Virus record (IMG/VR): IMGVR_UViG_3300010938_000006
Coordinates: 1 to 64,000 of that record
Strand: one strand, 5' to 3'
DNA: 64,000 nucleotides
DNA from: a virus
Under the pieces are notes generated by a model, which did no database searches, had not been told where the DNA came from, and saw only the letters and a program-made list of their open reading frames with translations. Below are positions 17,684 to 50,798 of this stretch, piece by piece. Numbering within the stretch: the first letter of the stretch is position 1; every line of letters begins with the position of its first letter. The position numbers and the translations under genes were made by a program.

Positions 17684-17837
17684 ACAAAATTTCTTTCATT
17701 TTAGTGTTTTCTAAAGAAGCGATTTTAATTTTAGTCATTAAATCTATCCCATAGATTGCAAAAATTTTCTGTAAATCATCAATGTCAGTGATTTTAACAA
17801 TTTTGGCAGGCTTATAATACTTGCTAACCAAGTACAT
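17655..17837 (-). CDS. hypothetical protein
   Basis: 60-aa ORF. Confidence 0.4.
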   Translation of the reverse strand: MYLVSKYYKPAKIVKITDIDDLQKIFAIYGIDLMTKIKIASLENTKMKEILYDESNKTNK

Positions 17838-17885
17838 GCCTTTTTTATACGGAAAATTTTTTTTTCAATCTGCTCATATTCAAAT

Positions 17886-17922
17886 CAGGGACCAGCCGTA
17901 GGAGGCTTACGACTGATCCCTG
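17886..17922 (-). terminator. 13-bp stem-loop after the primase-helicase gene
   Basis: On the minus-sense RNA, CAGGGAUCAGUCG/CGGCUGGUCCCUG pairs perfectly with two G-U wobbles. The plus sense would have A-C mismatches. Followed by AUUUG. Confidence 0.5.
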
Positions 17923-17970
17923 CCTTATTAGCTTTAGCGCAGATATTAATCCGACGCTAAGTCTAACAAA

Positions 17971-20046
17971 CTATCTACTATATTTGCTCTTAAGAATCTC
18001 TTTTTCTTGTTCTTCTCGTTCAATCTTATATATTTGGAGTTCTTCAAAAGTCATGTCAGAAACATCACTTTTAGCTCCATTCCATTTAAGAATGCCCTCA
18101 ACCTCAGGGCCAAGACGATTCTTAGCAATGTATAATCGTGCAACATCATCTAAATCTGGATATCCCATAAAAGGACGCCACATAGTGATTACTGCATCAG
18201 CCATCTCTTCCCAATCACCGGCTTCTTTAGCTGCTCGCTTAGTTCTAAGCGGTACAGAACCATCACCAGTATTGCGAGAAATTTGACACAAGTAAATCCA
18301 AGCAGCTTCGGTATCTGCAGCTACTTCGGGTGCTTTTAAAGCATTATACTTAGCATTAGCGTGGGCGTCTGTTTTATCACTAGTAATACGACCAGCATAG
18401 TCAACAACCACTAGCTTAACCTTTTCACCAGTTTTTTGTTCTACTGCTTGCACTCGCTCTTTCATTTGGTCCATAGACAAAGTAGAACTAAAATCAAACG
18501 TAGTTTTATTAAAGGTTTTAGCTACAATTTGACGAATTTCTGCTATCTTTGCTGCATCTTTATTTTTATAGAAAGACATAATCTCATGCTTGCTATAATT
18601 AGTGCATTTTTGAGCAATTTTTTGAAATACAAGATTCTTATACATATCCATTGAAAAGAATACTGTACGTTGATTAAGTTCATTAGCTCTTTCCATGATA
18701 TTAAGAGCTAGAGAAGTCTTTCCTACTCCTGTTGCAGCAATTAGTAGGGTTTTTGTACCGATAGTAAGGTCTACGTTGGCATCAATAAAATCAATTCCAG
18801 TAAACACTCTATTACTATCATAGTTTTCAGCAAAATTACTAAAACTATCAGATACTTCTTCAATTTGAACTAAAGAAGAATCAGAAGAAATCTTATTGTG
18901 CAAAATACACGGAGGACCATTTTTTACTGCTGCACAATATTTATGCAACAATTCATTATCTTCCGTAGTTCCTGGTCCACCTGCTTTAGGTTTGGCATGT
19001 GGACTATAAGCACTAGCGATATGCTGTGTCCAAATCTCATCTTTATCAATAATCTTATCTTCTGGATAAAGTCTACTGTTAAGTTCTGCGATGCCCTTTA
19101 GAACTCTATGGGCTAGCTCTTTTTCCATCCCTTGATTGCGGTAATAGGCCGCCAATCGAAAGAATACCCTAGAACGCTCCCCAGGTATCATTATACCCTT
19201 AGAAAGGGCATATATGCATCGTGGCATATGTCTAGGCATTTTCTTAAAATCAATAGTATTCAATCCACGAATGCCTTCAGTTTCTTCAACATTAACAATA
19301 ACTGAGCGTGGCTTAATGTTTCCACGATACTTATCTAAAAACTTAATATCGCTTAAAGGTTTGACAGTAATAGTAGCCTGAGGTTTGGTAGCTAAAGATT
19401 TAATTTGTTCTATAGAGAGCTTAACTAAATCATTAGGAGTTAAGGCTATCTTATATAGCCCACTTACTTTATGTTTAGTATTAACTATGCGAAATATACG
19501 GTTTACGTTATAAATAGTAGTATCAAAAGTCTTGATGCCGTGTGCAAAGTTGGAGCAAATAATCTTCAATTCCTCAGGCGTATACTCTCCAGTAGTATCT
19601 ACTTCAACATGAAACCCTTTATTTCCAGAGAAGTAAACTATTGTATGCATAGATACGTTAATTCCTTGATCCTTCAATTTTCTTAAAAGGGAACGCACAT
19701 CTGACTTGATATCATCTAAAGATGCAGAAGTATTCTTTTTAATATCAAAATCAAATATTAGTTTATTGGTAGTAACTTTGCCAGCATAACCCGCTACAGA
19801 ACCATAGCCTACAACGGTATCATTGGCATCGTATCGTGGAGTTTTATTGTAATAATCTATTACATCTTGATTATAAGTATATAAAGAAATATACCAATCA
19901 GATTTAGTATCACTATCTAAAATTTTTTGTAGTTCTAAAGGATTGCTAGCAATTTCTGCTGGAATTAACGTACCCCAGTCATTAACGTGCTTGCAAATTC
20001 TGTAATACTTAGATGAAGACTTAGGTTGTAATGCAGTATGGGACAT
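17971..20046 (-). CDS. bifunctional AEP primase (prim-pol) / DnaB-like helicase
   Basis: N-half has FDFDIK and SGNKGFHVEV. C-half has Walker A ATGVGKTS and Walker B LVVVDY. Confidence 0.8.
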   Translation of the reverse strand: MSHTALQPKSSSKYYRICKHVNDWGTLIPAEIASNPLELQKILDSDTKSDWYISLYTYNQDVIDYYNKTPRYDANDTVVGYGSVAGYAGKVTTNKLIFDFDIKKNTSASLDDIKSDVRSLLRKLKDQGINVSMHTIVYFSGNKGFHVEVDTTGEYTPEELKIICSNFAHGIKTFDTTIYNVNRIFRIVNTKHKVSGLYKIALTPNDLVKLSIEQIKSLATKPQATITVKPLSDIKFLDKYRGNIKPRSVIVNVEETEGIRGLNTIDFKKMPRHMPRCIYALSKGIMIPGERSRVFFRLAAYYRNQGMEKELAHRVLKGIAELNSRLYPEDKIIDKDEIWTQHIASAYSPHAKPKAGGPGTTEDNELLHKYCAAVKNGPPCILHNKISSDSSLVQIEEVSDSFSNFAENYDSNRVFTGIDFIDANVDLTIGTKTLLIAATGVGKTSLALNIMERANELNQRTVFFSMDMYKNLVFQKIAQKCTNYSKHEIMSFYKNKDAAKIAEIRQIVAKTFNKTTFDFSSTLSMDQMKERVQAVEQKTGEKVKLVVVDYAGRITSDKTDAHANAKYNALKAPEVAADTEAAWIYLCQISRNTGDGSVPLRTKRAAKEAGDWEEMADAVITMWRPFMGYPDLDDVARLYIAKNRLGPEVEGILKWNGAKSDVSDMTFEELQIYKIEREEQEKEILKSKYSR

Positions 20047-20075
20047 TAGAGTGCCTCCCTAATTTTAGACTCTAA

Positions 20076-20330
20076 TTAATTCGTGGGTTCGTCAAAAAAC
20101 GAAAGACGAACATCGGGCGAATTTTCCGAACGCTTCTCAGCATTCCAATACAATTGGAAATTAGTGAGAGCGACGGTGCGACCATCAGGAAGTTCTGCAA
20201 AAAGCTTAATGCCTTGCGGATAGCTCTTTTCAGGGTTACTAGAAATACTAATGTATTCCGTTCCTTGTTTGGACGTTTTAACCCAACCGTTCGCAAACGT
20301 CAAAGACTTATTTTGATTACCTTGATTCAT
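20076..20330 (-). CDS. hypothetical protein (DUF736-like tail NSPDVRLSF)
   Basis: 84-aa ORF with an AAGGAG-type SD. The overlapping 20072..20296 ORF is judged spurious. Confidence 0.45.
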   Translation of the reverse strand: MNQGNQNKSLTFANGWVKTSKQGTEYISISSNPEKSYPQGIKLFAELPDGRTVALTNFQLYWNAEKRSENSPDVRLSFFDEPTN

Positions 20331-20358
20331 TGTTTCTCCTTACAATTAAATATATCAG

Positions 20359-20787
20359 TTATTTGGTTTCTTGTCCAGCGGGAACTTCAGTTTTACCTTC
20401 TTGTTCTTTAGCCGCTAATTCTGCTGCGATTCGTTTACGCTCTTCATTAATATAGTGTTGAGTCAAAATGAATCGGTCAGAAATCACTCGTTGTCCTAAA
20501 GCGAAGCAAAGCTTCTCTTCATCTTCTTTAAGATTAACAGGAATGCCATCAGTCGGCAAATCTAAAATAGCTAGCAGCACTCTATTTTTAGCTCTTGAAG
20601 ACAATTTAGGGAAAAGCTCGGCCAAATACTTTTTATTGGTGATAAAAGATCCGCCAGCACGAGAAACTAGTTCTTCTGCAGAGGGCACATTAATCTTTTG
20701 ACCAGTTTTTTCTTCTTCTTTTTGAATAGAAGTTACTTCTGTTTGAGTTACTTCATTAGTTTTGTTTTCTTGCATTTTATTCTCCAT
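20359..20787 (-). CDS. hypothetical acidic protein
   Basis: 142-aa ORF. Confidence 0.5.
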   Translation of the reverse strand: MENKMQENKTNEVTQTEVTSIQKEEEKTGQKINVPSAEELVSRAGGSFITNKKYLAELFPKLSSRAKNRVLLAILDLPTDGIPVNLKEDEEKLCFALGQRVISDRFILTQHYINEERKRIAAELAAKEQEGKTEVPAGQETK

Positions 20788-21404
20788 TAAAATTCAACAT
20801 CTTCCACGTTATTAGATGCTACTGGTGCCTCTTCCGTAGTAAGAGGTTGGGCCGGTTTAGCCACAACTTGTGCCCTTTGAAAGGTAGAAGGACGAATAAC
20901 CTGAGACGGTTGTCGTGACTGATAAGTAGGTGTCGGCCTATTGCTAGCTACGGGAGCAGTGGTAGCAGTAGTCACTGGAGGCTTATGACTTGCAACTGGA
21001 GCCACCGTAGTAGAACGTGACACTGGAGCACTCTTTTGATGATGTACAGCATTCTCATCTGGAGCATCCAATTCTTCGATAGCAGTCATATCAATATTGC
21101 AAGCAAAACGAAGAGCACGAGCTATTGCACGAGTCTCAGCCATACGAAGAAGGGCTCCAGCCACTTTCTTAGCCACATTGTTAGTATTGGCGTCTCCGTA
21201 TCCTGTAAAAGTCTTTTCTTGTCCATTATCAGAGATAGTCACGGTGGCTTTAATAACAGGAGAAGTCAAATCTTCATTAACCAATTCAGTATTAACTGAT
21301 TTTAGTCCTTTAGCATGGGCTTCCTGCAACAATCCAGGAAAAGTAATAAAGTCTTTTCCTTGAACGTTGACTATATATTTACTGATATCAGTTTTGGTTT
21401 GCAT
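20787..21404 (-). CDS. putative single-strand annealing/ssDNA-binding protein with Pro/Thr-rich tail
   Basis: GYGDANTNNV...AETRAIARALRFACNI resembles the Rad52/Sak-type helix. Low certainty. Confidence 0.3.
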   Translation of the reverse strand: MQTKTDISKYIVNVQGKDFITFPGLLQEAHAKGLKSVNTELVNEDLTSPVIKATVTISDNGQEKTFTGYGDANTNNVAKKVAGALLRMAETRAIARALRFACNIDMTAIEELDAPDENAVHHQKSAPVSRSTTVAPVASHKPPVTTATTAPVASNRPTPTYQSRQPSQVIRPSTFQRAQVVAKPAQPLTTEEAPVASNNVEDVEF

Positions 21405-21702
21405 CTTTATTCTCCTCTTCAGAAGAATCTGTTTTATTTTTTTCTAACTCTACGCCAAAATATTTTTCGATGGTTTCCACTGGAATGCCCATTTCGTCCT
21501 TAATAGTAAAGGCGATTAGGTTTTTAGTCAATAAGAAAAAGAATTGGTCTATAATTAAGCACATTGGTATAAATGCTTTTAGACTCATTTTAGTATCAAA
21601 ACCGAGGTATGAAAATACGTGATATATAGCAAAAGCATAGAAACTTCGCACAATAAAATTTCCTATTGTAGCGAAAATTGATGCTAAAATGATACTAAAC
21701 AT
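21388..21702 (-). CDS. small multi-pass membrane protein
   Basis: Start moved to ATG 21702 because the track start runs through the tRNA. Has hydrophobic segments. Confidence 0.45.
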   Translation of the reverse strand: MFSIILASIFATIGNFIVRSFYAFAIYHVFSYLGFDTKMSLKAFIPMCLIIDQFFFLLTKNLIAFTIKDEMGIPVETIEKYFGVELEKNKTDSSEEENKDANQN

Positions 21703-21716
21703 ATATCTCCTAAAAA

Positions 21717-21792
21717 TGGTTGCAGGCCAAGGACTCGAACCTTGTATCTCCACGTTATGAGCGTGGCGAGATAACCCATTCTCCAGCCTGCT
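21717..21792 (-). tRNA. tRNA with CAT anticodon (Met, initiator-like, or Ile2)
   Basis: 76-nt cloverleaf folded by hand. D stem GAGA/TCTC, anticodon stem CCACG/CGTGG, loop CTCATAA, T arm CAAGG-TTCGAGT-CCTTG, encoded CCA. Has an A1-A72 mismatch and an A11:U24 pair. Confidence 0.85.
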
Positions 21793-25324: not shown

Positions 25325-25589
25325 AAAGCATCTCCGATATGTTGGTTAAAGGGAAAAATATTCCTGTTTTATCATTAATTCTTTGATATTGTTTTCCGTA
25401 TGGTATATGTCTTACAGATGTATACCCTTCTACGTCTTCAAAAGTTATAGGTTCTCCAGCTAAAACATCCATAGTTTCATTAACAACAATACCTCTTAAC
25501 CAATGTCCATAACTAAAGTCTGGGCCATCTTTTTTAGGACATCCTAATTGATGCCAGAATATTACTTTTGTCCCTAAAGGATATTTCAT
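25308..25589 (-). CDS. LLY-tail family small protein
   Basis: Ends ISEMLYGSLT. Confidence 0.5.
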   Translation of the reverse strand: MKYPLGTKVIFWHQLGCPKKDGPDFSYGHWLRGIVVNETMDVLAGEPITFEDVEGYTSVRHIPYGKQYQRINDKTGIFFPLTNISEMLYGSLT

Positions 25590-26458
25590 CGTATTCTATC
25601 TAAATTAGTATAAATCGGCTTACCCTTTACTTTTTTTACGAAAGTAGGCCAAACTATACCATATTTCTTAATAACTCTATTTATAACGGCCCACACTGCA
25701 TCTTCACTCATTTTAAGGCTTTTTGCTGCATCAGTCAATTGCATATTTTGTATAAAAACTTTGTTCAATATTTTCAATTGCTTCTTATTTAAATTATTTT
25801 CATTCTCTTCAATAAACTTACGCATGATAGCGAATTTACTTAGTTTTGTTAAAGCATAGTATATAGTGTACTTGGCTTTGTCTTCATTAAGGAGTCCGAA
25901 TTTGTCTGCTACATATTTAAAATCATTACCTTTAAAGAAATACTGTTGTACCATATCTTGCTTTCGCTTACTCAAACAATCCCAAGGTAATTCTAAATTA
26001 GAATTTGGAAATAGGCTTATAATTTCAGCCCCTTCAGTGTACTCTTCTGAGGAATATTCCAGGTTCTCTTTATACATAAGATAAGGCTCTTCTATCTTAT
26101 TCCTGTGCATAAAATCGTTTATTTGTCCACAGGGGGAATCGCAAGTGGCTTTTATGGGACAAGTGTCACACCTACTAATAAAAAGTTCGCCTTGGGCAAT
26201 ATTTTGAGTTTTAGCTAATTCGTCAAGATAAGGTTTAGCCGTAGGGCTTTTCCAAGGTAAAGGCCGACCAATACACTCTTTACCTATACATACGGCTCTT
26301 TTAGGGCATTCATCATAACTTTGACCATAAATATCTATACATTCTTGCTTAATTTGTCTAAGAATTTCAAAGCGTTTATCAAATGGAATAAGAGAATACC
26401 AAGGAGGTAAACTACAAGCAGGAGGCTTATTTTGTTCTTTCCATTTTTTTTCATCCAT
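25586..26458 (-). CDS. Cys-rich protein with C-terminal HTH (sigma region-4-like)
   Basis: LTDAAKSLKMSEDAVWAVINRVIKKYG helix-turn-helix plus several N-terminal Cys pairs. Confidence 0.3.
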   Translation of the reverse strand: MDEKKWKEQNKPPACSLPPWYSLIPFDKRFEILRQIKQECIDIYGQSYDECPKRAVCIGKECIGRPLPWKSPTAKPYLDELAKTQNIAQGELFISRCDTCPIKATCDSPCGQINDFMHRNKIEEPYLMYKENLEYSSEEYTEGAEIISLFPNSNLELPWDCLSKRKQDMVQQYFFKGNDFKYVADKFGLLNEDKAKYTIYYALTKLSKFAIMRKFIEENENNLNKKQLKILNKVFIQNMQLTDAAKSLKMSEDAVWAVINRVIKKYGIVWPTFVKKVKGKPIYTNLDRIR

Positions 26459-33230: not shown

Positions 33231-34619
33231 CTACCTTTTTTTATTAATCTTAATTCTAGTAACCCATCCCCACTTAGCGGGAGGATTTTGATTGCCGTAA
33301 ATTGCCCATAGAACGGGATATTTGGGTTTCTTAGGATGATCGGCCATATCCATATCACCGAAGTAAATTAGACCGTCTACGTCCAATTCTGCGGCCTTAT
33401 CCAAGGCAGGTTGATATGCTGTTCCACCACGACCATTAACTTTAATAGGCTTTTTTGGGTCAAATTTGTACACTTTATGCACAACACAGTCAGCTTCGAT
33501 AACAGTTATTTCTACTCCCATATTGTGAATTTTTGCACACTCTGCCCAAATTTGTTCTAAAGATTCGTCTGGCATACTACCAGAAGTATCCCATGCCGTA
33601 GCCAAATGCATTTTAGGATAAACTTTTATACCAGGAAATAATACCCCAAATCGACGATTACGAATTTTTCTCGAAGATTCAAGAATAATTTCAGAGGTTT
33701 TAGCAACAAAACGTTGCAAGTCCGCTCGCCAATCCTTAGGCTTATAGTACAAAGCGTTAATCATTTGAGCTAAATCCCCAGGTAACGTTCCAATACCCAT
33801 ATTGGATTGCTCCATAGCCTTGCCTACAGTTTGCTTAATCTTTTCTGCTACGTATTCTGCATCTGGATTGCCTTCATACCAAATGCTATGGTCATCTACT
33901 GTACTGTTTCCTTGACCATCTTTGCCTTGACTTTGGCTCTTTCCTTTTTGAGTTTGGCCTTCATCACCATCACCGCCACCTTTACGTTTCTTTTGTAAAA
34001 TATCATAATAATATTCCATATTTTGGCGACGTTCTAATCCTGGATGTTGTTTAGCAAGATTATCCACTAGCAAAGGTTGTGCCTCAAGAGGTTTTCCAGC
34101 GTCAGGATTGTCAATAACGTTTCCTTGATTGTCCATCATTTGGTCAGGTTGAACAATCATATCACCTTGTTCGTTAAACAAGTGAAACTTCTTAGGCAAA
34201 TTAGGCAGATACTCGTTAATGGCGTAGTCTGCCGCTTGGTTTAACGTACTGGCCTTCATCATGTCTTGAACAACTTCTTTAAGTTGTCGCTTTTCACCGT
34301 AAAACATATTAGGTTCTAAGTCTTTATATCGACCGATGTGATTGTTAAGAACGTGATAAACTTCATGTTTAAGTAATTCGATTCGTTCTGGTTGTTTCAA
34401 ATCATTCCAGAAGAATGGATTAACGTAAAGATTAACCGTATCAGTCACATTTACCCCCAAAGTTGGGAGTCTGGTAACAAAATTTCTAGTCATATTTAAT
34501 AACATTGCCGCAAAAAACGGCTCATTTTGAATAAGCTTCATAATTGCAGCTTGCAGATTCTCTGCAGCTTCCGATTCTGCTCGCTTAAGTCTATCGTTAA
34601 TTTGATTATTTTGTTCCAT
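33231..34619 (-). CDS. VWA-domain protein with N-terminal HExxH metallopeptidase-like domain (DUF2201/CobT-like)
   Basis: HEVYHVLNNH in the N-half. MIDAS-type AWDTSGSMPDE in the C-half. Confidence 0.7.
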   Translation of the reverse strand: MEQNNQINDRLKRAESEAAENLQAAIMKLIQNEPFFAAMLLNMTRNFVTRLPTLGVNVTDTVNLYVNPFFWNDLKQPERIELLKHEVYHVLNNHIGRYKDLEPNMFYGEKRQLKEVVQDMMKASTLNQAADYAINEYLPNLPKKFHLFNEQGDMIVQPDQMMDNQGNVIDNPDAGKPLEAQPLLVDNLAKQHPGLERRQNMEYYYDILQKKRKGGGDGDEGQTQKGKSQSQGKDGQGNSTVDDHSIWYEGNPDAEYVAEKIKQTVGKAMEQSNMGIGTLPGDLAQMINALYYKPKDWRADLQRFVAKTSEIILESSRKIRNRRFGVLFPGIKVYPKMHLATAWDTSGSMPDESLEQIWAECAKIHNMGVEITVIEADCVVHKVYKFDPKKPIKVNGRGGTAYQPALDKAAELDVDGLIYFGDMDMADHPKKPKYPVLWAIYGNQNPPAKWGWVTRIKINKKR

Positions 34620-34642
34620 ACACTTATTTTATTCAAAACAAA

Positions 34643-34687
34643 GGCGGATAGCTAGTACTATTTTAAATTTTGTACTAACTACCCGCC
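34643..34687 (-). terminator. 16-bp stem-loop plus U-tract between the MoxR and VWA genes
   Basis: On the minus-sense RNA, GGCGGGUAGUUAGUAC/GUACUAGCUAUCCGCC pairs with two G-U wobbles and is followed by UUUGUUUUG. Confidence 0.6.
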
Positions 34688-34719
34688 GTTGACGACGTTA
34701 TAATGGGGGCGTCTAAGTC

Positions 34720-35820
34720 TTACTTTGCATTCATTTTAGCTTTGGCTTTAGTAAGCAAAGCTTCAAATTCCTTATCATTCTCAAAGAATGTTCGGAGGTT
34801 ATCTTGTAGATATAGCTCTCGTGCAGAACTATAACATAAGTCTGCAGGGATTGCCTTAAGAAACTTCATAAGGTTATCACCTTCGACTGCAGTAAACTTA
34901 GTCTTATCCTTAGCCTTTACATACTTAAGGATATTATCTGACGTAGCTTTTAGAAGGTCCATACGACCACCAGTAGCATGGTCAGAATATTGCTCAATAC
35001 GCTTCTTATGCTTATTGAAGTGCTTGAGAATATCCTCTGCACTCAACGGTTTATCGGTATTCTTAATAGATTCGATAAACGCCGTAGTGGCAGCCATTCC
35101 AATAAGGCCGTAGCTTAGCTCTTGGAGCAAGCTAAGAGGCATTTTTTGCTTTTTCAAGCGGTCCAGAGACTTATAGCTACGACGAGAGGGCTTTACTTCT
35201 TCATAGTTAAAGTCTTCGGTTTTATTCTCCAGTAATTCAGGTTGAGTGCGAATAAACTCAATGATATCTGGATCGGTGTCTGATTTTTCAGCATAATCTA
35301 ACCATTCCGAAACAGTGGGATCAAGTTTAATGTGACAAAAGCGATCCATGAAAGCTTTATCAGCGATATCAGTAACGATATAATCTTCAGTATTAGGATT
35401 ACTCATTGCCATGATGTAGCAATTGTTGGGCAAATATGTCGTATGCATACGTCCTTCGAGAACCAACGGGAATACCGCTTGAAGTACGTCACGACGAGCA
35501 CGATTCATTTCGTCAAGAGCTAGAATAGCTCCAGACTTAGGATTATTCGTGCAGTAATCAATAATCTCTTTGAGCCAGTTCGGAGTAAAGTGTTTAGTAG
35601 CAATCTTACGGCCTTTATCATCCGTATCAAAATCTGGAAGACCTAGCAAGTCTCCTATATCTTGAGTACCGAGATTGAGATACATAAACTTATATCCCAA
35701 TTCATCAGCGAATTGTTTCGCCGTTTCAGATTTGCCAATTCCGTGTCGGCCCCATACCAAGCTAGCTACCTTAGCCTTCATGAGGTAAGGTAGAGCCTTT
35801 TTAAATGTCTTGATATCCAT
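34720..35820 (-). CDS. MoxR/CobS-like AAA+ ATPase
   Basis: Walker A GRHGIGKSE, Walker B ILALDEMNRA, 366 aa. Paired with the VWA gene. Confidence 0.8.
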   Translation of the reverse strand: MDIKTFKKALPYLMKAKVASLVWGRHGIGKSETAKQFADELGYKFMYLNLGTQDIGDLLGLPDFDTDDKGRKIATKHFTPNWLKEIIDYCTNNPKSGAILALDEMNRARRDVLQAVFPLVLEGRMHTTYLPNNCYIMAMSNPNTEDYIVTDIADKAFMDRFCHIKLDPTVSEWLDYAEKSDTDPDIIEFIRTQPELLENKTEDFNYEEVKPSRRSYKSLDRLKKQKMPLSLLQELSYGLIGMAATTAFIESIKNTDKPLSAEDILKHFNKHKKRIEQYSDHATGGRMDLLKATSDNILKYVKAKDKTKFTAVEGDNLMKFLKAIPADLCYSSARELYLQDNLRTFFENDKEFEALLTKAKAKMNAK

Positions 35821-35957: not shown

Positions 35958-36815
35958 TCAATACAATTCAAGTAGTGAATCATAGGAATTTTCTAAAGCT
36001 TTAACTAGCTTAACCATCTCTTGCGCATCTTTAATGCCAAAATCATTAGCATCAAGTCCAGCTAAGGCAATATGTATTTTATATACAGAGTTGCTCTTAG
36101 AGAGTTTTTTGCCGTACAAGTATTCTATTAAAAATAAAACAGAATTTTTGCGTTTTTTGGCAATATGCTTATTTATTATACCATTAAATTCTAACCTGTT
36201 TTTTCTCCAACGATGTTGAGTAGCTCCAGAGGCAATAATAGAAGAAAACCACTTCTCTAAATCTTTGTGCTCAGGTTTAACAGTAGTATTACTAGTACTA
36301 TATCCTACTGCTTGTACTCTACGATTAGTATAGACTAGTCGTCGATATTCTTCATTATTATATCTAGTAACTACTACATCAATTACAGGATTAATGAGAA
36401 ATTTATCAAAATTTATACAAAGATTTACATACTCAACAAATAAATGGTCTAAAGTAGTAGCATTGGTTTTTTTGCTTGTTACGACTTTAGTGTCTATTTT
36501 AAAACATAGGTCAAAATCATATTTTTCAGGACTGTGATTACTGTATCTATCCGTTGTTACGTAAAAATCTTCTACGAAGTTATTTAGGAAGGGCAGTAAT
36601 TCGTTTGAGCTATAGGTGTTGCGCTGAAATTTGTGCTCTTTAGCATTATGGATTGCTAACCAATCATACGTTAGATTCCCATTTTGAGCACCAAGCAACT
36701 TACCTTTTAATTGAAAACTAATAGTAGTAGGAATAGTTTCAATTTTTTTGTCAGTAGAATCGTAATAGATTTCCAATAAATTTCTTAAAGCCTCAGACAT
36801 AAACGCCCCCAACAT
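35958..36815 (-). CDS. hypothetical protein
   Basis: 285-aa ORF ending in TGA. The frame stays open for 39 more codons, to TAA 35841-35843. Confidence 0.55.
   Translation of the reverse strand: MLGAFMSEALRNLLEIYYDSTDKKIETIPTTISFQLKGKLLGAQNGNLTYDWLAIHNAKEHKFQRNTYSSNELLPFLNNFVEDFYVTTDRYSNHSPEKYDFDLCFKIDTKVVTSKKTNATTLDHLFVEYVNLCINFDKFLINPVIDVVVTRYNNEEYRRLVYTNRRVQAVGYSTSNTTVKPEHKDLEKWFSSIIASGATQHRWRKNRLEFNGIINKHIAKKRKNSVLFLIEYLYGKKLSKSNSVYKIHIALAGLDANDFGIKDAQEMVKLVKALENSYDSLLELY
36023..36038 (-). promoter_or_regulatory. candidate sigma-54-type promoter motif
   Basis: Minus strand reads TGGCATTAAAGATGCG (GG-N10-GC), about 190 nt upstream of the MoxR ATG and inside the 3' end of the upstream ORF. 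Confidence 0.35.
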
Positions 36816-38677: not shown

Positions 38678-38693
38678 CGCATATATCATGCCA
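38678..38693 (-). promoter_or_regulatory. candidate sigma-54-type promoter motif
   Basis: Minus strand reads TGGCATGATATATGCG (GG-N10-GC), in the gap after the receiver-like gene. Confidence 0.35.
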
Positions 38694-43626: not shown

Positions 43627-43864
43627 GTGCTCGAAATGATTCTATTTCATCAATACGTGAACGTCCATCAGCTATTAGCCCACCAAACTTAATAGGTTTT
43701 TTCATATATACTTTATCCGCATCTCGTAAATTCTTTAAACGCATATCAATACCAGTCAATAATTCAGAATAGGGCATGTCCAATTTACGTCTTTTTATAG
43801 AGAGGGCATGGTCGATTTTCGCTCTTTTAGAGGAAGGGGCATGTCCGATTTTTCTTCCTTTCAT
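43619..43864 (-). CDS. basic repeat protein (first gene of the leftward arm)
   Basis: Start set to ATG 43864, after a TTGGAG SD. Has RKIGHAPS/AKIDHALS/RKLDMPYS repeats. Confidence 0.5.
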   Translation of the reverse strand: MKGRKIGHAPSSKRAKIDHALSIKRRKLDMPYSELLTGIDMRLKNLRDADKVYMKKPIKFGGLIADGRSRIDEIESFRAHG

Positions 43865-43934
43865 TTTCAAAACTCCAATTTTTCTGATTTTTCTAATTGT
43901 GTTGATTATGTGATTTTCTTCACAATTCAAAAGT

Positions 43935-43950
43935 TGGCATAGTTTATGCT
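43935..43950 (+). promoter_or_regulatory. sigma-54-type promoter motif P1
   Basis: TGGCATAGTTTATGCT (GG-N10-GC). Confidence 0.45.
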
Positions 43951-43952
43951 AA

Positions 43953-43968
43953 TGCAATCTTCATGCCA
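43953..43968 (-). promoter_or_regulatory. sigma-54-type promoter motif facing the leftward arm
   Basis: Minus strand reads TGGCATGAAGATTGCA, about 75 nt upstream of ATG 43864. Forms an inverted pair with P1. Confidence 0.5.
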
Positions 43969-44116
43969 ATACACTAGCACGCTTATTGCAATTGCAATAC
44001 TGATACCACGGTAACAGTACGGTTCTTGCTATAGAATACTCCAAGCCTAATCTAGGCTAAATATATATCTAAACCTAGACTAGGCTCGATTGGAGTAAAT
44101 TAATAATTATAGCACT

Positions 44117-44132
44117 TGGCATTTATATTGCA
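44117..44132 (+). promoter_or_regulatory. sigma-54-type promoter motif P2
   Basis: TGGCATTTATATTGCA. Full match to TGGCAY-N5-TTGCW. Confidence 0.55.
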
Positions 44133-44250
44133 ATTACTATTAATCGTATAAGAACTTTACATGTTGATATAGTATACATTAGCCTCACTTGCAGCCTAAT
44201 ACTGTATACAATTAATACTAAATTCATAATTGCATTGTGCCTAAATCACT

Positions 44251-44266
44251 TGGCATCGACGTTGCA
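44251..44266 (+). promoter_or_regulatory. sigma-54-type promoter motif P3
   Basis: TGGCATCGACGTTGCA, 57 nt upstream of ATG 44323. Confidence 0.6.
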
Positions 44267-44322
44267 TCTAATACTAATCGAACGTTGCACTAAATGCAAC
44301 TTAACTAATGGAATAAATCACA

Positions 44323-44595
44323 ATGCAAGCTAATCAAGTTAACCGTAAAGAGTCTAAAGAATCGGCGTATAGTCAAGTTAAACGGCTATATAAGTCTGTT
44401 ATCAATACCGCTAATATTAAAGACAACGGTTATAGTGCGTCTCATACCGCTCTATTTGTGTGTTCTAATAAGAGTATTGAGGCTAAGAATATTGATACTA
44501 ATGCATTCTGTACTTGGGTACATGCATTGACGGGTATTAAGAATACCACAACGGAACGGTATCTTAGACTGTTTAAATCTATTGACGTTAAGTAA
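44323..44595 (+). CDS. hypothetical protein (island)
   Basis: 90-aa ORF after a TGGAATAAA SD-like motif. Confidence 0.55.
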   Translation: MQANQVNRKESKESAYSQVKRLYKSVINTANIKDNGYSASHTALFVCSNKSIEAKNIDTNAFCTWVHALTGIKNTTTERYLRLFKSIDVK

Positions 44596-44650
44596 CGTTC
44601 GGCTTGGGTTAAGTTGAACGTATGCTGATAACCCTAAACTTGAGGTATAT

Positions 44651-44803
44651 ATGTAGACCGTGTTAAGGAATGTACAGGAATTCAATATTAACAATGTATT
44701 GAATACGCATGCTGAGACACACGACGTTGTAACTATTATACCGTCGCATAAAGACACTGAGACAGAGTGTATTATATATCTAATTGTGTTAAAGATTAAA
44801 TAG
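44651..44803 (+). pseudogene. small ORF with TAG as codon 2 (44654-44656)
   Basis: SD TTGAGGTATAT, then ATG TAG, then 48 open codons TVLRNVQEFNINNVLNTHAETHDVVTIIPSHKDTETECIIYLIVLKIK. Confidence 0.35.
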
Positions 44804-44811
44804 AGGTGCTT

Positions 44812-45201
44812 ATGCAAGAATTCTGTATTGGAGACATCGTACAACTTAGAGATGGTAACGTTTATAAAATTGAGAACATTCGATATATTCCTCGTGGCCA
44901 TGCTAAAGACGGTATAGGTGGTAATCTGTATACGTTGCATTGCATTACATTTCCCGAAGAATATAAAAGTTATTATGAGACTAGGATGCGTAATGAGGCA
45001 TTAGTTGTGCAATTCTCAAATCAAGTTGACGATAAGTTTATTGAGACTATTAGCGATCCAATGCCTGCAATCGGCGTACCCGCATTAGATAAAAGTGTTA
45101 AGAGTACCTCTAAACTTAAACCTATTGACACTAGGCCGCTTGCTAAAGTTTATATCCTAGCAGAATATAGACAACGTAAACAACTTAGACGCCGTGCCTA
45201 A
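44812..45201 (+). CDS. hypothetical protein with SH3-like FCIGDIVQLRDG strand
   Basis: SD TAGAGGTGCTT then ATG 44812. Confidence 0.55.
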   Translation: MQEFCIGDIVQLRDGNVYKIENIRYIPRGHAKDGIGGNLYTLHCITFPEEYKSYYETRMRNEALVVQFSNQVDDKFIETISDPMPAIGVPALDKSVKSTSKLKPIDTRPLAKVYILAEYRQRKQLRRRA

Positions 45202-45271
45202 TTAGGCTTAAAGTATTGCTTAGCTGTATATAAGTTACACAATATGCTTATTAATAGCAAGCCTAGTATTG

Positions 45272-45287
45272 TGGCATTGACGTTGCA
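45272..45287 (+). promoter_or_regulatory. sigma-54-type promoter motif P4
   Basis: TGGCATTGACGTTGCA, 15/16 identical to P3, 38 nt upstream of ATG 45325. Confidence 0.6.
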
Positions 45288-45324
45288 TTTAATAACAGTG
45301 TAACTCAATATGGAGTAAAGTACA

Positions 45325-45567
45325 ATGAGTGTATACGTAACAATTAGCTGTAACGAATGTAAATCAGACTTAGGATATGGTAACGCCGTTGCATCGGTAA
45401 CTATTCGAGACGGAATAGAGTACCACATACACCACACGTTTAATTGTGGCTGTAAAGATAACATGCAAGCGTGTACTAAAGTGTATAACCCTAAAGAGTA
45501 TGATATAACCGTATGTAAATACTGTAATAGTAAAGATTTATATAGTTCATACGAATGCGACGAATAG
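45325..45567 (+). CDS. Cys-rich zinc-finger protein
   Basis: CNEC...CGC...C...CKYC in 80 aa. SD ATGGAGTAAAG. Confidence 0.55.
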   Translation: MSVYVTISCNECKSDLGYGNAVASVTIRDGIEYHIHHTFNCGCKDNMQACTKVYNPKEYDITVCKYCNSKDLYSSYECDE

Positions 45568-45785
45568 GAATGCATATGGTAACATGGTGTTATAAATGCC
45601 GTAAATTTATATGGGAATGCAAGTGTGCTAAACACAATTGCAATTATTGTAAAGATACTGGAATACAATGGTATTCTATTAGAATTAAAGACGGTATCGA
45701 CGCTGACAGAGACATATGCGACTATTGCAACGCATTCGATAAGAGTATTGAGGCTAATAAACATAAGATTGGAGTGTGCAAATAA
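45555..45785 (+). CDS. Cys-rich zinc-finger protein
   Basis: CYKC..CKC..CNYC...CDYC in 76 aa. Confidence 0.5.
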   Translation: MRRIGMHMVTWCYKCRKFIWECKCAKHNCNYCKDTGIQWYSIRIKDGIDADRDICDYCNAFDKSIEANKHKIGVCK

Positions 45786-45786
45786 C

Positions 45787-46440
45787 ATGCCTAAACCTAA
45801 GATTTACAATTGGCTTAGTATCAATTCTAAACTTGCTAAGATTAGCGGTGTTAAGACGTTTAACTTCGGTATTCCAGCGTATAAGTCTAAGACGGGGTTT
45901 AGTATGTGCCCTAATGCTGCAGCGTGTGCAATTGGCTGTTATGCAACTATGAGGGCATATACATTCTCGAACGTTGCTAAAGTATTCGAAGCAAGGCTAA
46001 AGTTTACCCAATTTGCAGAATTTATACCAACTATGAATGCTGAATTGCAACGCCGTAAAGTACAACGTTTACGGATACATGACAGCGGTGATTTTTATAG
46101 TCGAGAATATTTAGACGCTTGGCTAAGTATTATTAGACTTAATCTCGCCATACAATTCTATGTATATACTAAGATGGTATCAATGTTCAAGTCAATTGTA
46201 GATATCATGCCAAGTAACTTTAATGTGGTGTACTCATACGGCGGTATAGAGGATAAGTTGATTAACCGTGAGACTGACAGGCATTCTTATGTATTCCCAA
46301 GCCTTGACGCATTGCAAGCCAAGGGTTATGCCGATGCATCTAAAGACGATGCCGTGGTATTGGGTACTAATCCTAAGATTAGCTTAGTATATCATGGTAC
46401 TAAGAATTATACTAATACGTATTGGAATAGAGTTAAATAG
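45787..46440 (+). CDS. GP88-like protein (Cys-cluster SMCPNAAACAIGCYA)
   Basis: Start set to ATG 45787 (MPKPKIYNW...). Motifs CPNAAACAIGCYA and RIHDSGDFYS recall the GP88 family. The assignment is from memory only. Confidence 0.45.
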   Translation: MPKPKIYNWLSINSKLAKISGVKTFNFGIPAYKSKTGFSMCPNAAACAIGCYATMRAYTFSNVAKVFEARLKFTQFAEFIPTMNAELQRRKVQRLRIHDSGDFYSREYLDAWLSIIRLNLAIQFYVYTKMVSMFKSIVDIMPSNFNVVYSYGGIEDKLINRETDRHSYVFPSLDALQAKGYADASKDDAVVLGTNPKISLVYHGTKNYTNTYWNRVK

Positions 46441-46448
46441 AGGTAAAT

Positions 46449-46586
46449 ATGCAATTCCATTGTTATAAAGATAAGTATCAAGGGCACGCATTCAAGTATC
46501 CTAATGGTATTGAGGTAAATTGTTACAACGGCAACGTATCATATAGCAACGTGTGTGTGCCAAGCCTTGGAGTAACTAATGTCTAA
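46449..46586 (+). CDS. 45-aa hypothetical protein
   Basis: SD AGAGGTAAAT then ATG. MQFHCYKDKYQGHAFKYPNGIEVNCYNGNVSYSNVCVPSLGVTNV. Confidence 0.4.
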   Translation: MQFHCYKDKYQGHAFKYPNGIEVNCYNGNVSYSNVCVPSLGVTNV

Positions 46587-46686
46587 GATTAAATCATTGA
46601 TTAATAGTTCTACAACTACAACTATTAAATCTAGAATACAATTAGTTGCGGTATATGCTACGGCACTATTGTTAAGACTTATATAG
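46579..46686 (+). CDS. 35-aa hypothetical membrane peptide
   Basis: SD TTGGAGTAACTA then ATG. MSKIKSLINSSTTTTIKSRIQLVAVYATALLLRLI. Confidence 0.35.
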   Translation: MSKIKSLINSSTTTTIKSRIQLVAVYATALLLRLI

Positions 46687-46727
46687 TAGTTATACATAAT
46701 TCTAATTCTATTCAAGGCTAATGCCCT

Positions 46728-46743
46728 TGGCATAGCCAATGCA
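46728..46743 (+). promoter_or_regulatory. sigma-54-type promoter motif P5
   Basis: TGGCATAGCCAATGCA, immediately upstream of ORF 46756. Confidence 0.5.
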
Positions 46744-46755
46744 TTAGGATACAGT

Positions 46756-47373
46756 ATGATACATGATTTAAAGTGTGAATATAGAGGTAACAGAATTAGC
46801 GTGCAACTACTAAGCCAATATAGCGTTGTTAAAGTCAATGATACTTGGGTTAAGTCTGTTATCAATAGTAAATTAAAGTCTTTAATCAATGATATTAAGA
46901 ATGTTATAGATACTGAACATAGAGGTAAACATATGAAGTTAAATAACCGTAGTGTAACGTTACTAGAAGTCTTAGTTACGGGTATCATTATGGGAATGCT
47001 ATGCATGTTTACTATTCCCACTATTAAACTAATGGTAAAGTTGACCAAGCGTGCCGAAAATGCAAGCGTGCAATTAGCACACTAATCTGTAAATACCACG
47101 GTAACGGCAACGGCATTAGACCAAGTTAAGACTAGATGGGTATACGTATATGTACCTAATACTACAGACTGTAAACCCGTTGACATACAATATTGGATTA
47201 AACGCACGGCTAATAGAGTTATCACGTTGTATAAAGACGCACAATGTACCCAATCGTTTGGTACACTAAATGCATTGGATAACTTACGGTATGCTAATGA
47301 TACTACTAAGACGCTATGGGAGGTATCAGGGGATATCGCAACGTTACGTGTTCTATTAATCATATTCCCTTAA
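46756..47373 (+). pseudogene. type IV pilin-like protein interrupted by in-frame TAA (47083-47085)
   Basis: Internal SD AGAGGTAAACAT then ATG 46933. MKLNNRSVTLLEVLVTGIIMGMLCMF resembles a prepilin N-terminus. After the TAA, 95 further open codons contain a Cys pair (TDCKP...AQCTQ) but no start codon. Confidence 0.45.
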
Positions 47374-47416: not shown

Positions 47417-47728
47417 ATGAGTATCTCTAAAGTGTATAATATTAGACTTGATTTATATGAATTAGTTGACAACGGATACGGTGAACCGGCAACTTTAGAT
47501 ACACACGGTGAATCTATTGGTGAACTAATTGAGAATGTATTCTTCGAATATATCGGTAACAATGGAGACGATGCCATGTATGGTAACGGCGTGGATAACC
47601 TTGCAGAATTAGACGCTGCAACTAGGATTAAGGTTATTAATCTATTAGTTAAGACGTATAATGATTTAGTTGAACACGGTATCACTGACAGCGTATTCCT
47701 AAAGTATAAACAGACGGTTAAGGTGTAA
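47417..47728 (+). CDS. hypothetical acidic protein
   Basis: SD GATTGGAGTAAATACA then ATG. 103 aa. Confidence 0.6.
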   Translation: MSISKVYNIRLDLYELVDNGYGEPATLDTHGESIGELIENVFFEYIGNNGDDAMYGNGVDNLAELDAATRIKVINLLVKTYNDLVEHGITDSVFLKYKQTVKV

Positions 47729-47729
47729 C

Positions 47730-47939
47730 GTGTTACGTTCGGAATGCATATACTGTAACGGTATGGGTATATATTCTATTCAACTTGACACTGAGACTTG
47801 GCATACTGAATTGTGTAAACATTGCATTCCTAATTGCAATACGTGTGCCGATACTCGACGTGTAGAGTATGAGACTAGTAAACCGTGGCGGCCTAATGAA
47901 CGGTTTATAGAGCATAAACAGTGTCCAAATTGTAAATGA
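47730..47939 (+). CDS. DnaJ-type zinc-finger-like small protein
   Basis: CIYCNGMG ... CKHC ... CNTC ... CPNC. GTG start after AAGGTG. Confidence 0.5.
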   Translation: MLRSECIYCNGMGIYSIQLDTETWHTELCKHCIPNCNTCADTRRVEYETSKPWRPNERFIEHKQCPNCK

Positions 47940-49044: not shown

Positions 49045-49599
49045 CTTATATAGTTAACATTTACAGTAAAGGCACAATTAGTTAAGGGTTTAGGTATAGG
49101 CATATACATAGATAAGGGTTTATACTTGTAATTCCTATGCCTAGTTATCAATATAACCTAGTATAGTCTTAGTTGAATACTAGTTACTAGATATATTTAT
49201 ATAGTAACTGTTAAGTATTAATACACTAGTGGCAATTAATCACACTAGATATATAGATAAGTATTTAATAAGATTAGATAATAAGACTGTTATTGTATAG
49301 TATTTATATGGTATATAGCAACTATATTCACCATATCATACCCTCTGTATATTTATAATTAATCATTATCACTATTAAATCTGTCTCATACGCACTCATT
49401 ATATCACACTATTTACAATAAGTCAATACATTATTTAGATAATGTACCTAGTATACTACTACTATACTAGTTAATTATGTACTAATTATGGGGTGAGTGT
49501 GCTAACAATAGCATATTATACTTATTTACTATTATCATTATATGATATAAGTATATTATTATTTAATTATTATATTGCGCTTCTTATGCCGACAGATTT

Positions 49600-49610
49600 C
49601 CCCCCCCCCC
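49600..49610. repeat. C11 homopolymer
   Basis: Run of 11 C followed by TATATACCCC. Confidence 0.9.
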
Positions 49611-49971
49611 TATATACCCCTTAAGAATTAGCATTATATTATATAAGTATAATAGTATTATACGATATTAGTATTTAATCATTATATCATAATAGTATAT
49701 TATTACAATTCTTGTGCCGAGTGAGTGTGGCCCGATTTTTGCAATATAATCATTATAGTATAATATCATAATTTAATACTTTACTATTATTAGAATATAG
49801 TAGTATATACACTTTAGCTAATAAGTTAATATATTTGTATATGTTATGAAGTATGCAATAGGTGTGTAAGGATTATATATAGATAAGTAGTTGATATAAT
49901 TGAGAAAGGGGTATACGGTGGGAAATTTACCTCCTCCCCACACCCCTAGAGGTACAAAGACCTTGCAAACA

Positions 49972-50027
49972 GTTTTGAAATTTTTAAAAAAATTGAAAAA
50001 CGGGCATAGATATGGTACTATCTAGAC
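49972..50027 (+). promoter_or_regulatory. repeat element R1 (A-tract / CGGGC / GGTA / CTAGAC)
   Basis: TTTTGAAATTTTTAAAAAAATTGAAAAACGGGCATAGATATGGTACTATCTAGAC, similar to R2. Confidence 0.4.
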
Positions 50028-50306
50028 ATGCACGAGCTCTATATAGTAACTAAGTGCCTACAAGCTTTGAACCTAGACTTAATAGGATTCCCTCAAATGA
50101 TTATGATTATTAAGGTAGGAAGTATAGTCAAGGTTAATAGAGAACATACTATCATAGATACAGTAAATAAAGAAAACAAAATACATAATATATACATAGA
50201 CTTAATCCATCCTAGCTTAGCTAATAATCTATTAGTAAATAGAAAATCCTTCTACGAGTATACAGAGAAGTTCAAAGGACCAATGGTAGACCTCCTATAC
50301 AAATAA
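50028..50306 (+). CDS. LLY-tail family small protein
   Basis: IKVGSIVKVNREH strand. Ends MVDLLYK. The true start may be the internal MIMII. Confidence 0.5.
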   Translation: MHELYIVTKCLQALNLDLIGFPQMIMIIKVGSIVKVNREHTIIDTVNKENKIHNIYIDLIHPSLANNLLVNRKSFYEYTEKFKGPMVDLLYK

Positions 50307-50316
50307 GGGGGGGGGG
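50307..50316. repeat. G10 homopolymer
   Basis: Run of 10 G directly after the stop of the 50028 ORF, followed by AGTATACCC. Confidence 0.9.
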
Positions 50317-50352
50317 AGTATACCCTAATAAAATCGCAGGTTTGAGATAGGC

Positions 50353-50406
50353 CCTTTCAAAATTTAAAAAAAAATAAAAATCGAGCCTACGGTATATTCC
50401 CTAGAC
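50353..50406 (+). promoter_or_regulatory. repeat element R2
   Basis: CCTTTCAAAATTTAAAAAAAAATAAAAATCGAGCCTACGGTATATTCCCTAGAC, 32 nt upstream of ATG 50439. Confidence 0.4.
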
Positions 50407-50438
50407 TTAAGCAAAGAACATAGATATAATATTAACAA

Positions 50439-50798
50439 ATGGATTACCATATGCAACAAATAGCAGAATATATCTATATAGCCTTAAGCAGTAAATACTG
50501 CCATACTCCTTTACTTACTAGTGATCAACCTAAGCCTATATACTTATCTAAGCATAGATTCAAAGTAGCTATGAATAAATTAGTAGATAAGCCTGGATAT
50601 GAAATTATATTACAAATTGAAGTTCCTGATATACGAAAGTTCTATAATATCAAGTATATATTATCTAATATCTATGATATAGTATGCGTAGATTATACTA
50701 TTATTAAGACAGCTATATATTACTTTGAGAATGAACTAAAGAAGGTATTTGTAAGAGTACAAGATACTGAAATGACTAGAGTATTATATGAATTGTAA
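50439..50798 (+). CDS. LLY-tail family protein
   Basis: Ends MTRVLYEL. Confidence 0.5.
   Translation: MDYHMQQIAEYIYIALSSKYCHTPLLTSDQPKPIYLSKHRFKVAMNKLVDKPGYEIILQIEVPDIRKFYNIKYILSNIYDIVCVDYTIIKTAIYYFENELKKVFVRVQDTEMTRVLYEL

Follow-up and report, generated by a model that had tools for sequence, protein, structure and literature searches.

Gene arms and promoter-like sites at the locus

The viral DNA analyzed here comprises positions 1 to 64,000 of IMG/VR record IMGVR_UViG_3300010938_000006 (this whole 64-kb stretch is referred to as the window) and contains a cluster of motifs that resemble the -24/-12 promoters of sigma-54 (RpoN). The window has a G+C content of approximately 33% and belongs to a tailed phage. 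Minus-strand genes occupy the left arm (1-43.9 kb), plus-strand genes begin at 44323, and the sign of the G-C skew changes at 44 kb. The left arm carries the replication genes (family A DNA polymerase, primase-helicase, ATP-dependent ligase, RecA-like protein, PhoH and two exonucleases) as well as genes for ClpP, a MoxR-like ATPase (AAA_5) and its DUF2201/VWA partner. The right arm begins with approximately 7 kb of small open reading frames (ORFs), followed by the genes for the large terminase, the portal and the major capsid protein. A rightward small-gene cluster (44323-47085, plus strand) consists of the ORFs 44323-44595, 44806-45201, 45325-45567, 45555-45785, 45790-46440 and 46756-47085, and only ORF 45790-46440 matched a protein family (GP88; PF17338, 2.3e-36). 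The sigma-54-type sites are placed where the leftward (replication) and rightward (small genes, capsid, tail) arms diverge and in front of three rightward small-gene units, and they are the only recognizable promoters of the small-gene cluster.

No nucleotide match to any deposited phage was found for the window, and its best matches among the proteins of cultured phages are only 25-31% identical, so that no annotated relative or host is available. The left 47 kb of the window are identical to part of a 51-kb metagenome contig of the Joint Genome Institute (sample 3300003890), which extends the window by only 3.8 kb, and no further contigs on record encode the proteins of the right end of the window. 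A terminase-based search yielded 13 IMG/VR relatives with 72-78% amino-acid identity. Contigs of relatives measure 104-119 kb and encode a tail sheath and a baseplate, so the phage is a myovirus of approximately 104 kb. An Rfam scan matched tRNA as the only family.

Six sigma-54-type sites are clustered between 43.93 and 46.75 kb, each in the orientation of an ORF that follows 14-374 nt downstream (14-192 nt for five of the sites). The best match of the window, TGGCATGAAGATTGCA (43953-43968, minus strand, 21.8 bits in the matrix described below), faces the left arm, with a predicted transcription start at approximately 43942 and a leader of 78 nt before the ATG at 43864. It is interdigitated with TGGCATAGTTTATGCT (43935-43950, plus strand, 18.3 bits), which has a weaker -12 box, and the 5' ends of this inverted pair are 33 bp apart. 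A tandem pair faces the right arm and consists of TGGCATTTATATTGCA (44117-44132, plus strand, 17.7 bits) as the upstream member and TGGCATCGACGTTGCA (44251-44266, plus strand, 19.5 bits), for which a start at approximately 44277 and a leader of 46 nt before the ATG at 44323 are predicted. Both members share a 39-nt repeat (second copy at 44242-44280) that reaches into the initially transcribed region. Further downstream, TGGCATTGACGTTGCA (45272-45287, plus strand, 17.6 bits) occupies the gap at 45202-45324 and has a predicted start at approximately 45298, a 27-nt leader and a GGAG sequence before the ATG at 45325. The last site, TGGCATAGCCAATGCA (46728-46743, plus strand, 19.6 bits), places its GC only 14 nt before the ATG at 46756, so that the predicted leader would measure 2 nt and the mRNA would be nearly leaderless. 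The same 14-nt geometry is found at other sites of the family (e.g. position 1087 of the related locus L071).

Within the divergent control region (43.93-44.33 kb) the elements are arranged from left to right as the inverted pair 43935(+)/43968(-), a variant site at 44008(-), two palindromes, a leftward sigma-70-type promoter and the tandem pair 44117(+)/44251(+). The variant leftward site TGGTATCAGTATTGCA (43993-44008, minus strand) is weak (10.9 bits) and was missed in a preliminary description of this DNA. Its -12 box falls within the 14-bp palindrome ATTGCAATTGCAAT, which had been correctly recognized there and is located at 43985-43998 rather than 43987-44000. The CCTA..TAGG inverted repeats proposed as activator sites are likewise present and form two 15-bp palindromes, AGCCTAATCTAGGCT (44044-44058) and AACCTAGACTAGGCT (44072-44086). 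These are 28 bp apart, represent the only two good copies in the window and have their centers at approximately -92/-64 from the predicted 44117(+) start and approximately -69/-97 from the predicted 44008(-) start. The sigma-70-type promoter TTGCAA-N16-TGCTATAAT (44106-44133, minus strand) faces left and overlaps the sigma-54-type site at 44117-44132; as both use the same DNA, binding of one holoenzyme would preclude that of the other. In the rightward direction, no strong sigma-70 match was found at 43.9-44.3 kb. The paired palindromes occupy positions typical of enhancers and may represent one, and a role as operator of the sigma-70-type promoter is equally possible because they are unique to this phage and lie at +13 to +55 of that promoter. 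The half-site AGCCTAR was considered as a dispersed activator site and rejected, as it is not enriched. To the left of the control region, inside the first leftward gene, a tandem repeat (43771-43851; 2.5 copies of a 32-33 bp unit) encodes an 11-amino-acid peptide repeat (KIGHAPSSKRA / KIDHALSIKRR).

Enrichment, consensus fit and distribution of the motif

The eight TGGCAT-N6-TGC sites of the preliminary description are all present in the window, and their enrichment was confirmed with dinucleotide-preserving shuffles, in which 0.31 +/- 0.58 matches are expected and none of 100 shuffles reached eight. Matrix scoring, which had been proposed in that description, covered the whole window. The position weight matrix was derived exclusively from 151 sites in relatives and contained no sequence of the window. 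This matrix detected 11 matches of at least 14 bits, compared to 0.62 in shuffles. The seven top-scoring matches are all located within 43.9-47.9 kb, and the six cluster sites reach 17.6-21.8 bits. The motif density in the cluster amounts to approximately 20 sites per 10 kb, while unrelated phage DNA (1.59 Mb) contains 0.10 and bacterial DNA from metagenome-assembled genomes (MAGs; 1.17 Mb) contains 0.06 strict sites per 10 kb, strict sites being defined by a C at -23. The cluster is therefore approximately 200-fold denser than the 1.6 Mb of control phage DNA, whose loci include those of the distant phages that were the sole matches in searches with the ClpP-like protein (viral and metagenome collections) and with PhoH (viral collection).

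The remaining matches of the window are more heterogeneous. The two left-arm sites of the preliminary description exist, with coordinates that differ by 1-2 nt, and cannot be distinguished from chance matches, given their low scores (14.8 and 9.3 bits), a G at -11 that is found in approximately 2% of the family sites and their position within ORFs. The first, TGGCATGATATATGCG (38678-38693, minus strand), scores 14.8 bits where the best shuffle match averages 14.1 bits and is probably a chance match or a weak internal promoter. The second, TGGCATTAAAGATGCG (36024-36039, minus strand, 9.3 bits), falls within the 3'-terminal part of ORF 35958-36815, with the MoxR-like AAA+ gene following 200 nt downstream, and is probably a chance match. 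Two further matches had been missed previously. The weak variant TGGTACACTAAATGCA (47259-47274, plus strand) scores 11.0 bits, which is not above chance, and is a possible additional promoter 144 nt 5' of the gene at 47417. In turn, CGGCACACGTATTGCA (47835-47850, minus strand, 19.3 bits) has no T at -26 and is antisense to the right-arm genes. A look-alike at approximately 46552-46575 (minus strand) was set aside because of its N12 instead of N10 spacing.

The fit to the sigma-54 consensus was assessed at 171 distinct sites of the window and 19 related loci, which were collected with only GGCA-N7-TGC fixed. At the free positions, T is found at -26 in 81% and at -27 in 51% of the sites, a pyrimidine at -21 in 95%, a purine at -20 in 80%, T at -15 in 60% and A/T at -11 in 93%. 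The longer classical sigma-54 consensus is YTGGCACGr-N3-TTGCW. The family motif reads YTGGCAYR-N3-TTGCW and thus follows the extended sigma-54 consensus also at positions that were not fixed. A shorter form of the consensus has been published as TGGCAC-N5-7-TTGCT (PMC12316311). The spacing is exactly GG-N10-GC in all sites of the window and in 116 strict sites of 15 loci; T occupies -21 in every site of the window, and several relatives mostly have C at this position. Recognition of -35/-10 elements by a protein of the sigma-70 family is incompatible with 5-6 bp between the boxes and is thereby ruled out for this motif.

The placement of the sites is promoter-like. Of the 116 strict sites in the 15 loci, 75% are located outside of ATG-initiated ORFs of at least 70 amino acids, compared to 27% of all bases. 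The orientation of the sites was tested independently of ORFs by purine skew, which replaced a crude greedy ORF model that gave a ratio of only 31:15. In these genomes, purine richness is a mark of the sense strand (present in 68 of 75 long ORFs), and it was detected in the 600 nt downstream of 92 of 114 sites (p = 2e-11). The first co-oriented ATG follows the GC at distances that form two clusters, at 14 nt and at 27-61 nt.

The motif is conserved in most of the relatives, whose early regions have otherwise diverged. Only the capsid and packaging genes of the relatives can be aligned at the nucleotide level (approximately 70% identity), while the early regions are unalignable and the GP88-family gene is the only small early gene in common. 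The motif is present in the early regions of L002, L007/L083, L010-L011/L096 and L236. In four relatives, the DNA in front of one orthologous small gene shows conservation of nothing but the motif and the beginning of a short ORF. A GP88-profile search retrieved 80 early-region loci from phages of 58-176 kb with 33-45% GC, and 16 of these loci contain at least four strict sites, where a composition-based estimate predicts approximately 0.05. The highest numbers of strict sites per 11-17 kb are found in L097 (17, in 16 kb), L109 (15), L071 (13) and L096 (9), while a large low-GC group among the GP88 loci has none. One set of capsid and tail loci of relatives (approximately 330 kb) contained no strict site, and other such stretches contained a few.

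Inverted pairs like that of the window, with 5' ends 33-35 bp apart, also occur in L002, L096, L071, L072, L109 and L121. L096 has a further inverted pair, 36 bp apart, that includes a TGGTAC variant, and TGGTAY variants are found upstream of genes in L097. The tandem layouts are diverse. In L094 (3380-3600), five strict and two degenerate sites follow each other head to tail every 28-29 bp before one inverted copy. In L061-L065, three sites are separated by 37-192 bp (mostly 55-68 bp), and identical sites are found 27 bp apart in L097. A second sequence, the palindrome TCTCA-N3-TGAGA, is strongly enriched in the early regions of L074 (13 copies), L109 (6), L071, L096 and L002, often followed by direct ATGAGACGT repeats approximately 15 bp apart, and is probably the operator of a regulator that is not present in the phage of the window. 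TGAGAC or TCTCA-N3-TGAGA was rejected as a shared enhancer, being absent from the window and having no set position relative to the sites.

Some observations concern other parts of these genomes. A class I/II aminotransferase gene (9325-10365, minus strand) shares the last 14 nt of its 3' end with the beginning of the DNA polymerase gene, is kept in the relative L335 and may serve metabolism or DNA modification. The L013/L053/L335 phage from the same sample has a G+C content of 27-31%, a longer DNA polymerase gene (1059 amino acids) and genes for ribonucleotide reductase, cytochrome c, ThyX and an Acb5-like protein at the end of its left arm. In the relative L140, approximately 4 kb past the last tail gene (17600-21449) lack ORFs of at least 80 amino acids, have a G+C content of 40% compared to 36% and gave no tRNA or Rfam match.

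Sigma-70 promoters, activator search and reading of the motif

Ordinary sigma-70 promoters are also found in this phage. Matches to the sigma-70 consensus occur at chance level between 36 and 52 kb (91 compared to 86), and the exact extended -10 box TGCTATAAT is enriched, with seven copies in the window where 2.2 are expected, which indicates that the phage does not use sigma-54-type promoters alone. Five copies are located on the minus strand in gaps between ORFs of the left arm and are oriented with the genes (6338, 21800, 37787, 43202 and 44106). Four of these five copies have a TTGnnn -35 element, and one precedes the tRNA-Met gene (21717-21792). The reliance on RpoN considered in the preliminary description would thus be only partial, as good extended -10 promoters are present beside the sigma-54-type sites. 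Strong sigma-70-like promoters on the minus strand, at 49426-49398 (TTGACT-17-TGATATAAT) and 49708-49681, are also found in an AT-rich region (49045-50440) with approximately 1 kb free of ORFs and with a C11 run (49600-49610) and a G10 run (50307-50316). It may serve as a second control region or as an origin.

The ribosome-binding sites are of the GGAG type, promoters of the form TTGnnn-N17-TGnTATAAT are present, and the Bacteroidetes-type -7 motif TAnnTTTG was tried and is not enriched. Such a combination is as expected for a host that uses ordinary sigma-70 promoters and Shine-Dalgarno sites. Among the MAGs that contain binned relatives, those labeled Ignavibacteriaceae and Pseudobdellovibrionaceae hold contigs of whole-phage size, and those labeled Saccharibacteria hold small contigs.

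An activator of sigma-54 was searched for in six reading frames with the GAFTGA-like loop, ESELFGH, the Walker A motif of bacterial enhancer-binding proteins (GExGxGK) and the RpoN box in the window and the loci L001-L235 and L334-L335. No activator or RpoN-box motif inside an ORF was detected in any locus of the phage's family, which bears out the earlier statement that no GAFTGA-type protein is encoded in the window, and the sole stop-free GAFTGA-like match was a degenerate GSFSGS in the unrelated locus L155. A Pfam scan of the 29 ORFs of at least 150 amino acids in the window and the small early ORFs gave no Sigma54_activat domain (PF00158), and Pfam and PHROG scans of the window ORFs gave no Sigma54_DBD or Sigma54_CBD domain, although a highly divergent homolog would escape these scans. 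One 104.8-kb relative genome was read over 1-53,973, from the early region through the whole structural arm, together with the left-arm ends of two other relatives, which encode ribonucleotide reductase, cytochrome c, ThyX, a kinase and similar proteins. The combined coverage corresponds to nearly the whole family genome and to all but approximately 36 kb of the phage itself. The genome-wide search for an enhancer-binding protein or a sigma-54-like factor proposed in the preliminary description was thus performed for the window and for the parts of the relatives that were read, and it yielded neither.

The only AAA+ candidate near the cluster is the 366-amino-acid AAA_5/MoxR-like protein (34720-35820, minus strand), which was excluded as an enhancer-binding protein by motif and Pfam analysis; its gene is followed by that of a DUF2201 metallopeptidase/VWA protein of 462 amino acids (33231-35820, minus strand, for both genes). 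A common early protein was considered as the activator and rejected. Besides GP88 and, in some loci, DUF932, the motif-rich early regions have no protein family in common, and GP88 is equally present in 47 motif-free loci. A protein of 290 amino acids (25586-26458, minus strand) has a Cys-rich N-terminal half and two C-terminal helix-turn-helix units resembling sigma-70 region 4 (PHROG 1740 'RNA polymerase sigma factor', 2.5e-6; Pfam Sigma70_r4, E = 0.007), and may regulate late genes or act as a sigma-like factor. No phage RNA polymerase was found in the window, where no ORF exceeds 763 amino acids, or in the tail module of one relative, whose large ORFs encode a baseplate protein, a tail sheath protein or proteins without family match.

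We consider it likely that the motifs are genuine -24/-12 promoters that are read by host RNA polymerase carrying sigma-54. The geometry, the flanking bases, the conservation, the early-region bias, the position and the direction of the sites all support the promoter interpretation given in the preliminary description. The same reading is favored by the chance-level number of sigma-70 matches between 36 and 52 kb, by the failure to find a phage RNA polymerase in the window and in the tail module of a relative, and by the precedent of Pseudomonas phage YuA. In the best reading of the locus, the rightward small-gene cluster and some of the left arm would be transcribed from these promoters, and part of the early program would thus probably run through the enhancer-dependent RNA polymerase of the host. 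The preservation of the motif across very different phages that have no phage protein in common points to a conserved host component as the reader.

Binding of sigma-54, the transcription starts, the nature of the activator and the temporal order are deduced from the DNA in the following scheme. On entry, the sigma-70 extended -10 promoters would fire, including the leftward promoter at 44133-44106 that overlaps the 44117 site. The sigma-54 holoenzyme would then bind the TGGCAT-N5-TTGCA sites as closed complexes, and an ATP-dependent activator, either an enhancer-binding protein of the host or an unrecognized phage factor, would open them. This activator may act from the palindromes at 44044-44086, approximately 65-95 bp upstream of the divergent promoters. 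Transcripts would start approximately 12 nt past the GC and carry leaders of 2-78 nt. The inverted pair 43935/43968 looks like a module that fires either way and never both at once, and would thus constitute one bidirectional, mutually exclusive promoter module.

Several observations weigh against this interpretation. No canonical activator was found in the window, in approximately 54 kb of one relative, in two left-arm ends or in the early-region loci, which makes activator-dependent early genes awkward to explain. The palindromes AGCCTAATCTAGGCT and AACCTAGACTAGGCT are absent from all relatives, so the candidate enhancer is not conserved. Approximately 20% of the sites face against the local gene direction, and the frequent inverted pairs and the head-to-tail arrays every 28 bp in some loci (L094) are less typical of simple promoters. 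A relative of the L013/L053 type, whose terminase is 77% identical, has no site of at least 14 bits in its early region, and the trait must therefore have been gained or lost within the family. Finally, the MAG labels of the binned relatives (Ignavibacteriaceae, Pseudobdellovibrionaceae, Saccharibacteria) conflict.

Some of these observations would also suit recognition of the motif by a phage-encoded factor, either a dedicated regulator that binds DNA or a sigma-like protein of divergent sequence. The sites would then be operators or promoters of a phage-specific transcription system, and the likeness to sigma-54 would be convergent or mimicry. The fixed 33-35 bp inverted pairs and the 28-bp head-to-tail arrays are reminiscent of operators or iterons, the search for an activator gene gave none, and the motif is missing in one close relative as if a phage gene had been lost or exchanged. 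The window also encodes the 290-amino-acid protein with its region-4-like units and many small early proteins without assigned function. This alternative is nonetheless unlikely. The motif-rich early regions share only GP88 (and DUF932 in some), which occurs in motif-free loci as well, and the match to sigma-54 spans five unconstrained positions in addition to the exact spacing, a convergence that is hard to envisage across phages of 58-176 kb with 33-45% GC. For a sigma-70-family protein, the 5-6 bp gap between the boxes is prohibitive.

Closed complexes of sigma-54 are stable and remain silent without an activator. The host holoenzyme could therefore bind the sites in a mainly non-initiating role, for titration, for blocking of read-through and insulation or for competition with the sigma-70 polymerase, and this would agree with the failure to find an activator gene. 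The 5-7 adjacent sites in the L094 arrays, the 17 sites in L097, the overlap of the 44117 site with a sigma-70 promoter and the sites that are antisense or inside genes could be explained in the same way, and some sigma-54 promoters have been reported to insulate (bioRxiv 10.1101/086108). A pure decoy or roadblock would have no need for promoter-like spacing to start codons, the sites show a strong orientation bias toward downstream genes (92/114), and the rightward cluster (44.3-47.1 kb) would be left without any other recognizable promoter. This role is considered unlikely, slightly more so than a phage-encoded factor. Chance or base composition, to which only the two left-arm sites with scores near the shuffle maximum conform, has a negligible probability as a general explanation and is refuted for the cluster at 43.9-46.8 kb by its enrichment over shuffled and control DNA and by its conservation in diverged relatives.

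Returning to sigma-54 promoters read by the host polymerase, transcription by this enzyme is strictly activator-dependent and has been viewed as a cellular device for stress, nutrient and flagellar functions, while phage programs normally use sigma-70 promoters, phage sigma factors or phage polymerases. The central question raised is what opens sigma-54 promoters in a large lytic-type phage lineage without a recognizable activator. If a host activator does so, infection would be gated by a specific physiological state of the host, and if a phage factor does so, it would represent a new class of sigma-54 activator. Only tentatively, and with more doubt than confidence, it can be proposed that widespread uncultured myoviruses drive early genes via the host sigma-54 polymerase without a canonical enhancer-binding protein, by means of a new kind of activator or a tie to a host activator. 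A new activator could be one of the small early proteins, or else the pair of MoxR-like AAA+ and VWA proteins encoded at 33.2-35.8 kb. If true, sigma-54 would offer a transcription channel that stays open during sigma-70 shutdown, and two promoter architectures would be new for sigma-54, namely inverted interdigitated pairs and tandem arrays with a 28-bp period. The phages provide compact natural sets of strong sigma-54-type promoters that are arranged unusually, as bidirectional interdigitated pairs, as tandem arrays or with leaderless starts, and these sets could aid studies of mechanism and host prediction for uncultured phages.

Comparison with known promoter systems

Bacterial sigma-54 promoters (glnAp2, pspA and the flagellar class) have the same GG-N10-GC spacing, extended consensus and gene-oriented upstream position as the phage sites, and the palindrome pair of the window at approximately -65 to -95 is a candidate counterpart of their upstream activator sequences. 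In contrast to the bacterial promoters, the phage sites are found on a virulent-type genome, are very dense in the early region and are in many cases organized in interdigitated inverted pairs or tandem arrays. The sites of the window all have T instead of C at -21, and several phage sites would yield nearly leaderless mRNAs. Bacterial sigma-54 operons are usually accompanied by the gene of their cognate activator, whereas none adjoins the phage sites.

In T4 late transcription, gp55/gp33 act together with the gp45 sliding clamp, which functions as a mobile enhancer, and a sigma-like factor of the phage recognizes a single TATAAATA element. It likewise depends on an activator-dependent form of the polymerase that is orthogonal to the sigma-70 program of the host. 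The element described here differs in that it equals the host sigma-54 consensus, and no phage sigma factor for it was identified. The promoters of T7-like and N4-like phage polymerases are similarly conserved, repeated and oriented motifs in front of phage genes, but they form a continuous block of approximately 20 bp, unlike the bipartite motif with sigma-54 spacing, and no phage RNA polymerase gene was found in the window or in the structural module of one relative.

The only precedent in the literature searched is the Pseudomonas phage YuA, for which sigma-54-like promoters were described besides sigma-70-like and phage-specific ones (bioRxiv 10.1101/2023.10.13.562163 / PMC10914365, citing Ceyssens et al. 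2008). YuA reportedly has sigma-54-like beside sigma-70-like promoters just as the phage of the window does, and it is a siphovirus with a known host and a single sigma-54-like promoter region (P015), compared to 6-9 sites in 3.5 kb here. In addition, the trait described here is common to relatives and to phages with larger genomes, which have as many as 17 sites per 16 kb, and the sequences are unrelated to that of YuA. The literature searched contained no account of clustered sigma-54 promoters in phage lineages. While the element itself is the known sigma-54 promoter, the new aspects are the density of the sites, their restriction to early regions and their spread over a large uncultured group of phages, together with the recurrent interdigitated and tandem layouts and the apparent lack of a phage activator.

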